From Alphaproteobacteria bacterium (GTDB lineage Bacteria > Pseudomonadota > Alphaproteobacteria > CAAGCB01 > CAG-977): DNA of 64,000 nt. Below are positions 20,100-21,143 of this stretch, piece after piece (positions within the stretch are counted from its first letter, which is position 1; every line of letters begins with the position of its first letter). Below the pieces are notes generated by a model that did not search any database, was not told the DNA's origin, and saw only the letters and a program-made list of their open reading frames with translations. The stretch covers positions 11,794 to 75,793 of the forward strand of contig CAAGCY010000024.1 of NCBI GenBank assembly GCA_900768465.1, given 5' to 3'. Both the position numbers and the translations under genes were made by a program.

Positions 20100-21143
20100 A
20101 TGACTACTGATGACAACTATATACAAATAATTAGAAATTATTTAGGCAATGAGATATCAATTGTTGAAAATTCAGAAAATCCTCTTAGGAAAGCGCTGTT
20201 AAACCTAGATCCATGCTCACGTGAAGGTGAAGGTGTACGCGATGAAAGATGCTCTACTTGTATGGCTTTTGAGTATATGCTAAAGCAAGAGGGTCCAGAA
20301 AAAGATTTTATGGCACTAAAAAAGTCTGATCTTGTAAATGGTGATTTAAAAACACAGGTTGGAACTTTATCAGAGATAATTGCATATTACTGCTTATGTA
20401 GAGCTGGATTCAAAGTAGAATACCAAAGTACAGACGATAAGCCGACAGCAGATTATAAAATAACTTCACCTGAAGGAGAGCAAGCAATCATTGAGGTTAC
20501 TAGTCGTGGATTATGTGATGAGGCTCAAAGTAAAATAAAGGAAGCAAAGCAGGCTCTAGATGAAGCAGTAAAAAATAATAAGGATCCGAACCAGAGAACA
20601 CATATTAGACCATATGGATACAGCAGTGATTCATGTACAGCAGATGCCATAAGCAAGATTTGTTCAATGAAAAAGGAAGAACATCAATTATCTGAAGAGT
20701 TACCTTCAATTTTGTGGGCTGATTTTGGTGTAACTGGTGATTTTATAACAGCTGGAGGATTATTTTATCCTCTAAACTCGTGGAATGGTTGTATAACATC
20801 AGGTCATTTTTGGTATGGTTTTTATGGAAGAAAAGGTTTCCCAATATATACTAATTTTTCAGTGAATAATGAAAATAATATAACCTTAGAAAAAGTTGAA
20901 AAAATGAATCATGATGGTAGATTTAATCAGAAAACAAAACTTTCTGGTTGCATTTTTAGATGCTCATCTTATAGCTTTTTTTATGAACATCCTGAACCTT
21001 TAAATCCAATTTCAGATAATTTTAGAAAAAGATTATTATTGCTACCGAAATTTTCCATTGAAAAATCGCTTGCTAACTTTTATCCAGGACTGGTAAAAGA
21101 AAAAAATGAGCAAATTGAAAAATTAATAAAATCTTTCTATTGA
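20100..21143 (+). CDS. Hypothetical protein (347 aa), visibly AT-rich cargo with a possible PD-(D/E)xK-like nuclease core and an N-terminal Cys cluster
   Basis: The ORF has a ggatatcgc-atg context. CSREGEGVRDERCSTC is a C-x11-C-x2-C cluster. ...SEIIAYYCLCRAGFKVEYQ....ADYKITSPEGEQAIIEVTS resembles an E..(h)..D-x13-E-V-(K/T) restriction-endonuclease-like fold, with T in place of K. No family confidently recognised. Confidence 0.4.
   Translation: MTTDDNYIQIIRNYLGNEISIVENSENPLRKALLNLDPCSREGEGVRDERCSTCMAFEYMLKQEGPEKDFMALKKSDLVNGDLKTQVGTLSEIIAYYCLCRAGFKVEYQSTDDKPTADYKITSPEGEQAIIEVTSRGLCDEAQSKIKEAKQALDEAVKNNKDPNQRTHIRPYGYSSDSCTADAISKICSMKKEEHQLSEELPSILWADFGVTGDFITAGGLFYPLNSWNGCITSGHFWYGFYGRKGFPIYTNFSVNNENNITLEKVEKMNHDGRFNQKTKLSGCIFRCSSYSFFYEHPEPLNPISDNFRKRLLLLPKFSIEKSLANFYPGLVKEKNEQIEKLIKSFY

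Follow-up and report, generated by a model that had tools for sequence, protein, structure and literature searches.

Gene 15 of the lambdoid phage HK97 is among the closest described counterparts of the gene that we report here. This gene lies at positions 20100-21143 on the forward strand of a 64,000-nucleotide stretch of contig CAAGCY010000024.1, from an alphaproteobacterium (the whole stretch is called the window below). It encodes a 347-residue protein and is a moron. The phage to which it belongs, lambda-like and temperate, survives in the window as a remnant, and the moron follows its tail-assembly-chaperone gene and precedes its tape-measure gene. The HK97 moron was reportedly treated by Juhala et al. 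in 2000 and by Cumby et al. in 2012. HK97 gene 15 was the first moron to be named, and it functions in superinfection exclusion (PMC3594210). It occupies the same place as our gene, the slot between the genes for the tail assembly chaperone and for the tape measure in a lambdoid tail operon (PMC3594210), and it too consists of extra DNA relative to sister phages, with a deviant GC content and a terminator of its own. However, gp15, the HK97 product, belongs to the YebO family and is a small protein of the inner membrane, whereas ours is a 347-residue soluble, enzyme-like protein with no sequence relationship to it.

Three other described systems come close in different respects. Members of the PD-(D/E)xK superfamily (Hjc, HindIII, EcoRV and the Cas4-family ACE1) have the order of core elements and the placement of acidic residues that are found in models of the 347-residue protein. 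It differs from them in having a variable residue in place of the lysine at +2, K or R at +4, and an invariant K191 and Q196 further downstream; its approximately 80 N-terminal helical residues and approximately 150 conserved C-terminal residues have no counterpart in those proteins, on which only some 50-60 residues superpose. GmrSD-type enzymes resemble it in being encoded by a single AT-rich gene, carried as prophage cargo and lacking a methyltransferase partner, but they consist of DUF262 and an HNH-type DUF1524 and have no sequence or domain relationship with it. Finally, a system reported in 2022 (PMC9122126) consists, like the slot described here, of a fixed locus between conserved phage genes that holds interchangeable anti-phage cargo; the present locus differs in belonging to lambda-like gut phages, in lying inside the tail operon, and in having cargos with common terminator and junction sequences. 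When the literature was searched by accession and by keyword, neither the protein family nor the chaperone/tape-measure hotspot was found described. The protein is outside every described family, and is a variant within both the PD-(D/E)xK superfamily and the class of moron-encoded effectors.

The moron cassette and its gene

The gene is the single open reading frame (ORF) of its cassette. An earlier note on this DNA, made from the sequence alone, had given the 347-residue ORF exactly as it is found here and had described it as AT-rich cargo; the cargo proves to be a discrete AT-rich insertion of 1.2 kb that is absent from sister phages. Its features are listed here, where L001, L004 and L006 are loci from intact relatives of the phage.

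20000-21206 (+), moron cassette of 1.2 kb, present in the window, L001, L004 and L006, and missing from phages with an empty site
20036-20064 (+), possible sigma-70 promoter TTGTTT-17-TATAAA, weak and read by eye, conserved in L001 and L004
20089-20093 (+), Shine-Dalgarno sequence AAGGA, 6 nt 5' of the ATG
20100-21143 (+), ORF of 347 residues with an ATG start, encoding a soluble member of an unannotated family
20214-20261 (+), C39-x11-C51-x2-C54 cluster, present in the window sequence and unconserved
20346-20573 (+), predicted PD-(D/E)xK-like core, residues 83-158, from the AlphaFold model, conservation and Foldseek
20670-21068 (+), aromatic-rich C-terminal part, residues ~191-323, the most conserved part of the family alignment, without structural analogue
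21162-21194 (+), intrinsic terminator with an 11-bp stem and T7 run, directly before the tape-measure ribosome-binding site

The cassette extends from the point of divergence after AAGGCAGGA to the ATG of the tape-measure gene. The hallmarks of a moron, as defined by Hendrix and Juhala, that are seen are extra DNA between otherwise adjacent genes, a deviant GC content and a terminator of its own. The GC content of the gene is 0.326 (0.198 at third codon positions); the phage backbone has approximately 0.48, and a chromosomal gene 0.556. The terminator hairpin (21162-21187) and its T-run are maintained with pair-preserving changes, and are missing from empty sites. A scan for promoter-like sites gave 8, against 5.4 ± 2.0 expected, which is not above expectation. 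Homologues begin at the same methionine as the window ORF.

Between the window and L001, identity is 98.7-100% within the cassette and 88-94% in the flanks, falling at the two cassette edges from 100% to 94% and 88%, with no co-conversion gradient. Because the cassette is closer to L001 than its flanks are, the alignment indicates that the cassette has been exchanged horizontally.

The protein has a mass of 39.6 kDa and an isoelectric point (pI) of 5.6, and has no transmembrane segments (maximum 19-residue hydropathy 1.15). The last 147 residues form a basic stretch (pI 8.95) with many aromatic residues (26 F/W/Y).

A widespread and unannotated protein family

Searches of Pfam, NCBIfam, PADLOC, PHROGs and PDB sequences with the single protein gave no match at meaningful E-values, and a Pfam scan of all 87 homologues in our family alignment (20-57% identical to the query) likewise gave none. 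The absence of a recognisable family, as the earlier note had put it, holds across these five libraries and also when all 87 members are scanned. The PADLOC-DB v2.0.0 hidden Markov models gave no match to the protein, and three isolated matches at E ~0.005 among the 87 members.

The protein is nonetheless not a singleton, which is where the earlier note overstated the case: at least 273 cluster representatives exist. A word-indexed search of 5.8 billion proteins returned only 8 relatives, 56-97% identical to the query, and an exhaustive HMMER search of 1.84 billion cluster representatives returned 273 at E <= 0.001, including 148 at E <= 1e-10. Most of the 273 are 330-400 residues long and 22-40% identical to the window protein, and all are unannotated; plasmid-borne homologues from Bacillus, Paraburkholderia and Burkholderia are entered in RefSeq as 'hypothetical protein'. 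A further search with the family profile gained one extra protein. No match was found in E. coli genomes, a scan of genome contigs returned the L004 contig again and nothing further, and scans of viral contigs gave no homologues.

The family consensus reads sALxE[IL]RAyG ... TP[DE]F ... vEVx[ST]KQ ... PFGxP ... ISKxxxIKxxExQ, and continues ... PS[IV]LWxDxQD ... SGxxWYAxYGxKGxP[IV]FE ... MxHDGRF ... ENP. In the numbering of the window protein, E92 is present in all 87 members, position 118 is D or E in 87/87, and E132 is found in 86/87. This degree of conservation, 99-100% at each of the three acidic positions, places the E/D/E motif noticed in the single sequence beyond chance. Position 136 is basic in 75/87 (K in most members, R in the window protein), while K191 and D208 are present in 86/87 and Q196 in 87/87. 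Position 134, which is T in the window protein, varies freely, with H, N, T, F, Y, V, A and others.

Conserved residues of the C-terminal part include K191, Q196, W206, D208, P224, S234-G235, W238, Y242-G243, M269, G273, F275, E296, P298 and S323. The C-terminal 200 residues had been regarded as an unassigned aromatic tail; they do not form a separate unit, and the last 150 residues are the most conserved part of the family.

The N-terminal cysteine cluster had been suggested to bind a metal. The C-x11-C-x2-C pattern is present as claimed, but it is specific to the window protein and unconserved: C51 occurs in the window only, being Y or F in every relative, L001 and L004 have W at the position of C54, and P0005 and P0006, the 56%-identical relatives, lack C39. 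We therefore reject a cysteine-based, zinc-finger-like metal-binding module, because a functional site would not vary in this way.

Some longer members (P0025, P0059, P0103 and others) carry N-terminal extensions without a Pfam match, and the extensions of P0025 and P0103 gave no match to PDB sequences. In P0025 and P0059, which are approximately 560 residues long, the extension covers residues 1-270 and starts ILAYGSLIDDPG, a start that we take to be reminiscent of gamma-glutamylcyclotransferase/AIG2-like motifs; no Pfam match supports this.

Predicted structure and putative active site

The structure was predicted with AlphaFold2 from the 87-sequence alignment, giving a model with a predicted local distance difference test (pLDDT) score of 91.9 and a predicted template modelling score of 0.91. 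A second model was made for P0053, which is 27% identical to the window protein, from a different alignment (pLDDT 87.9). The model of the window protein consists of approximately 80 helical residues followed by elements in the order helix-strand-strand-strand-helix-strand. Helix 83-101 bears E92 and is followed by strand 105-108, by strand 119-122 with D118 at its start, and by strand 128-135, which has E132 within it and R136 at its end; helix 140-158 and a later strand, 203-208, bearing W206 and D208, complete the set. The P0053 model has the same core order, so that the alpha-beta-beta-beta-alpha-beta topology of the PD-(D/E)xK core is found in both models.

This agrees with the helix-E / beta-D / beta-E arrangement that the earlier note had read from the sequence, with helix 1 contributing E92, strand 2 contributing D118 (at its start) and strand 3 contributing E132. 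Its remark that T stands where K is usual also holds: T134 provides no catalytic lysine, and in the family the strand-3 motif is variable at +2, the conserved basic residue being K/R136 at +4 (75/87; Arg in the window protein).

Foldseek comparison of an AlphaFold model, which had been proposed as a check on this idea, gave a divided answer. The lists for both models consist almost entirely of PD-(D/E)xK nucleases, but no match is significant, the best E-values being 0.06 (PDB), 0.023 (BFVD) and 0.35 (second model). The proteins listed include the restriction enzymes HindIII, EcoO109I, EcoRV, NotI, Kpn2I, FokI and HincII; the Holliday-junction resolvases archaeal Hjc and RecU; the Cas4-family ACE1, NucS/EndoMS, McrC and arenavirus cap-snatching endonucleases; and SfsA, VRR-NUC, I-Ssp6803I and Bax1. 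The core alignments cover 45-57 residues at 2.0-3.1 Å, with probabilities up to 1.00. Whole-protein TM-scores are approximately 0.2 and nothing matches the full protein; the N-terminal helical part and the conserved C-terminal part are without a solved structural counterpart. On the strength of the two models, assignment of the core to the restriction-endonuclease-like fold class is well supported.

Other candidate relationships were considered. The sole match of the family profile to PDB sequences was to a GH11 xylanase (E = 0.002, over 60 residues of aromatic strands), which we reject as compositional because no fold search echoed a xylanase. Alignment of the family profile by hhalign to a pP_pnuc protein, one of the alternative cargos listed below, and to a UPF0102 nuclease gave no similarity. 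A SNIPE-like membrane nuclease was also rejected: SNIPE has a GIY-YIG domain, DUF4041 and a transmembrane segment, all of which are absent from the window protein.

A cargo hotspot between the chaperone and tape-measure genes

In L001, L004 and L006 the homologue is the sole gene between the chaperone and tape-measure genes. A set of 31 sister phages was retrieved through the chaperone gene (56-99% identical), and the 347-residue protein is encoded in none of them. The slot was measured from the end of the chaperone ORF to the start of the tape-measure gene, and its sizes fall into discrete classes:

~160 bp, empty slot, 10 loci, with MT836000.1 (L035) counted beside the 31
776 bp, 152-residue secreted repeat protein without a Pfam match, 8 loci
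~1.13 kb, pP_pnuc_1 and pP_pnuc_2, 'pPIWI-associating nuclease', L057 and L062
~1.36 kb, homologue of the 347-residue protein, L001, L004 and L006
~1.65 kb, SLFN_AlbA_2 and HATPase_c_4, in L053 also a winged helix-turn-helix, L053 and L055
2.0 kb, GmrSD_N, L063 and L064
2.0 kb, DUF6088 and AbiEii toxin, L054
2.0 kb, Fic, L052
2.7 kb, small secreted protein, helix-turn-helix protein and HipA, L047 and L068

At least seven alternative inserts thus occupy the slot, and each is AT-rich compared to its own flanks. At the empty sites of two close relatives whose junctions were read (L046 and L050), the stop of the chaperone frame overlaps the tape-measure ATG (AAGGCAGGATTAAATG). All occupied sites have a hairpin and a T-run followed by ATGGAAAAA just 5' of the tape-measure ATG. 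The stem CACCTCARC/GYTGRGGTG is often common to unrelated cargos, and where other stems differ their pairing is kept; occupied sites of the L001 clade also have a common left-junction extension. This arrangement suggests that cargo is swapped by recombination between common flanks.

The earlier note had considered a defence role plausible, and the presence of AbiE, GmrSD, Fic, HipBA and Schlafen-type cargo in this slot of sister phages gives that idea a firmer basis.

The small secreted repeat protein is the commonest cargo of the slot, alone in 8 loci and together with HipBA in 2. It is 131-152 residues long (for example L041 5786-6244 and L047 5982-6377), with a start resembling a signal peptide and DS(F/L)GN-type repeats. 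It matches no Pfam family, and a role as surface or exclusion factor is possible. The faecal phage MT836000.1, in which the slot is empty, has a different insertion of 2.7 kb with five ORFs at 3814-6508, between its tail-tube and chaperone genes. The contig that encodes P0003 (L011 / L004, CAVDQP010000002.1) is labelled Holdemanella biformis, as part of a metagenome-assembled genome bin. It is a lambda-like phage with a backbone like that of the phage in the window, and the bin assignment is probably wrong.

Family members outside phages

Most family members are found in soil-bacterial chromosomes and plasmids, without phage context. Across 35 family loci no conserved neighbour gene was found, and therefore the family is a single-gene unit. 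It is mobile-element cargo. A large serine recombinase lies directly upstream of the family gene in L012, and plasmid loci carry TnpB elements, conjugation genes, or DndB-like, anti-restriction and ParB genes. In L008 a full-length DISARM DrmD gene (E = 3e-206) is situated 2.8 kb upstream; L010 has type I specificity subunits and an integrase nearby; one environmental locus, assigned to L022 by ORF size, contains HsdR and a YgjP-like peptidase; L017 contains an integrase and a Fic gene, the Fic homologue being two genes away from a distant family member; and L020 has an HTH-M78 peptidase. Many other loci have unrelated genes around them. A link between the family and defence islands is suggestive.

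Selection on the gene

The omega values of the gene, 0.24 for the window against L004 and 0.20 for the window against L006, show it on sequence comparison to be under purifying selection between lineages. In its 90% cluster the ORF is intact in 15/15 members, with no frameshift or stop. Recent changes are mostly non-synonymous (N) as opposed to synonymous (S). The window and L001 differ by 14N:1S, and the window and L039 by 7N:3S together with a 2-residue insertion and a 6-residue deletion, both in variable regions. Between the same two loci, pN/pS is 0.12 for the GmrSD gene of the remnant, 0.11 for a neighbouring D12-class methyltransferase gene and 0.15-0.19 for chromosomal genes, and is 0.39 and 0.59 for the decaying stubs of the protease and tape-measure genes. 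The substitution counts are small and the family-invariant residues are untouched. The window copy may be under relaxed or diversifying selection.

Proposed function and alternative explanations

Our preferred explanation, to which we give about an even chance, is that the 347-residue protein works alone as a metal-dependent nuclease encoded by the prophage, and that its role is in phage exclusion or defence. The cassette is carried by a lambda-like temperate phage of which a decayed remnant, integrated at tRNA-Pro, is left. On the modelled core, Mg2+ would be bound by the three acids (E92, D118 and E132, on helix 1, at the start of strand 2 and on strand 3, respectively), with either K/R136 or the invariant K191 as the basic residue that completes the site. 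The conserved aromatic C-terminal part may hold or select the substrate. Expressed from the prophage, the protein would cut nucleic acid while sparing the host, so that a single gene would provide exclusion of, or defence against, competing phages or other mobile elements. No fold match is statistically significant, and for that reason nuclease activity is something that we infer from the predicted core. The substrate, the way in which self is spared and the defence role are likewise inferred; the anatomy of the cassette and of the hotspot, the conservation within the family and the fold class of the core are shown.

More tentatively, and with the odds somewhat against it, the protein may be the first to be recognised in a widespread and undescribed family of single-gene anti-phage defence, in which a divergent PD-(D/E)xK core is combined with an aromatic C-terminal sensor or selector of the target (for example modified or injected phage DNA), housed in a modular, terminator-flanked tail-operon hotspot of lambda-like gut phages.

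Four other explanations have been weighed, and each is less likely than a prophage-borne exclusion or defence nuclease. The least improbable of them, though still unlikely, is that the family is functional but the window copy is an inactive relic that has been drifting since the death of the prophage. The mostly non-synonymous changes relative to L001 (14N:1S) and to L039 (7N:3S and two indels) fit this idea, as does a pN/pS that resembles that of the decaying protease and tape-measure stubs (0.39-0.59) and is unlike that of GmrSD (0.12). However, few changes were counted, and none of them alters a family-invariant residue; the two indels lie in a variable loop of lower confidence and in the variable N-terminal region, and none of the 15 cluster members has a frameshift or stop. 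Diversifying selection, which defence genes commonly undergo, would fit the pattern too. At the other end of the scale, we think it very unlikely that the PD-(D/E)xK scaffold is used for binding, regulation or other chemistry centred on the conserved C-terminal residues. The three acids at the exact metal-binding positions, 99-100% conserved over 87 sequences, are hard to explain without catalysis, even though the canonical Lys position is unconserved and conservation is highest in a C-terminal block that has many invariant aromatic and Gly residues and lacks a structural analogue. The marginal similarity of strands to GH11 xylanase (E = 0.002) could be cited for such a role, but it consists of 60 residues of aromatic beta strands and is unechoed by the fold searches.

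Two further explanations we consider improbable, and to the same degree. The protein could be a free-standing homing endonuclease, selfish in that it cuts the empty chaperone/tape-measure junction of related phages (AAGGCAGGATTAAATGAACACAGCG and its flanks) and is copied into them during repair. Its core is of the PD-(D/E)xK type, with I-Ssp6803I among the fold matches, and its solitary gene occurs sporadically at one precise intergenic site in three phage lineages, in a cassette less diverged than the flanks. Yet the same slot holds at least six unrelated cargos with common left and right junctions and a common terminator, and because of this the turnover of cargo needs no cargo-encoded nuclease. 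Identity drops sharply at the cassette edges rather than along a co-conversion gradient, most family members reside in soil-bacterial chromosomes or plasmids without phage context, and the gene persists in a dead prophage in two strains. Alternatively, the protein could serve the lytic cycle of the phage or counter-defence, for example by late degradation of host or competitor DNA, and not protect the lysogen. The gene has the same orientation as the late tail operon in which it lies, so late read-through would express it, and the candidates for a promoter of its own are weak. It is, however, absent from most sister phages and is therefore dispensable for phage growth; it is followed by a terminator, as the other cargos are; the alternatives in the slot are classic lysogen-protecting or toxin modules; the ORF has been kept intact in a remnant no longer able to make virions; and plasmids and chromosomes also carry homologues.

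Should the protein prove to be an active defence nuclease, it would represent a new family among single-gene immune effectors, one with 273 or more clusters (50% identity) spread over phages, plasmids and chromosomes of gut and soil origin, and with a substrate-recognition part that would be without structural precedent. Time and again, enzymes of this kind have been turned into tools or have brought to light new ways of discriminating self from non-self. The protein is a good testable candidate for defence and the hotspot is a useful by-product, providing a cheap guilt-by-location handle on unknown defence genes such as that for the 152-residue secreted repeat protein; current understanding is not overturned.

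The prophage remnant and neighbouring genes

The remnant extends from approximately 8.9 to 21.8 kb of the window and is bounded by tRNA-Pro and attachment-site-like (att-like) repeats. The earlier note had placed the gene in the same island as GmrSD-like and Fic genes, and all three do lie inside the tRNA-Pro-bounded remnant, the main features of which are:

8665-8741 (+), tRNA-Pro(TGG), left attachment site
11989-13896 (+), GmrSD-type (DUF262 and DUF1524) type IV restriction gene, AT-rich cargo of the remnant (GC 0.328)
17379-18536 (-), SoFic-type Fic gene in the portal/protease slot, the second cargo slot of the phage
18674-20029 (+), fusion ORF of 451 residues, S49 prohead protease and end of the tail-chaperone frame, with the joint near 19720
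21207-21752 (+), tape-measure stub of 181 residues (879-881 in intact L004/L001), running into the right att repeat
21764-21882 (+), right att-like repeat, 94-98% identical to 8786-8892, with a degenerate tRNA 3' end at 21793-21813

The order of genes is GmrSD, a terminase gpA nuclease fragment, gpW and portal, followed by SoFic on the reverse strand, the S49 protease, the moron gene and the tape-measure stub. Losses were judged against L001, an intact relative from a pig-gut metagenome with 89-96% nucleotide identity. A deletion of 4.3 kb took the decoration, capsid, head-tail and tail-tube genes, leaving the protease joined to the last part of the chaperone frame; also gone are nearly the whole of the tape-measure gene and everything past it. 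A 287-kb scaffold from another sample has the remnant again, approximately 99% identical and at the same place in the chromosome, with the ORF of the moron gene intact.

The tRNA-Pro 3' end is present three times, at 8723-8743, 8877-8897 and 21793-21813, the first two in tandem 154 bp apart, which suggests from the sequence a history of successive integrations or of tandem islands at this attachment site. The GmrSD gene occupies the place expected for the N-terminal ATPase part of the large terminase, of which the gpA nuclease fragment (14232-14711) alone survives. The portal/protease slot also holds a Fic gene in L001 (2830-3894, +) and L004 (2050-3114, +); the window Fic gene has the opposite orientation and DNA that cannot be aligned with these, and therefore this cassette has been replaced. 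Between gpW and portal there are approximately 364 bp of extra DNA (15527-15890) that are missing from L001, containing an ORF of 101 residues (15529-15834, -) that has a counterpart in L039 (5430-5735) and no Pfam match on record; this insertion may be a third small moron.

A D12-class N6-adenine methyltransferase gene (22469-23518, -; PADLOC MTase_II, E = 2e-128) is located a short way beyond the att-bounded island. No nuclease partner was found for it, and it appears to be an orphan methylase. Its copy in L039 is flanked by small DUF465 genes. A pairing of the 347-residue protein with this methyltransferase, as its restriction endonuclease, was rejected, since the methyltransferase is outside the island and the two are not adjacent in intact phages. 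The adjacent cognate methyltransferase of a type II restriction-modification system is lacking, the cassette being one ORF.

Further along, a chromosomal ORF of 1114 residues (25336-28680, -), with no Pfam match on record, contains imperfect tandem repeats at 25382-25507 whose starts are spaced by 18/45 nt, the copies being reported as 63 nt.

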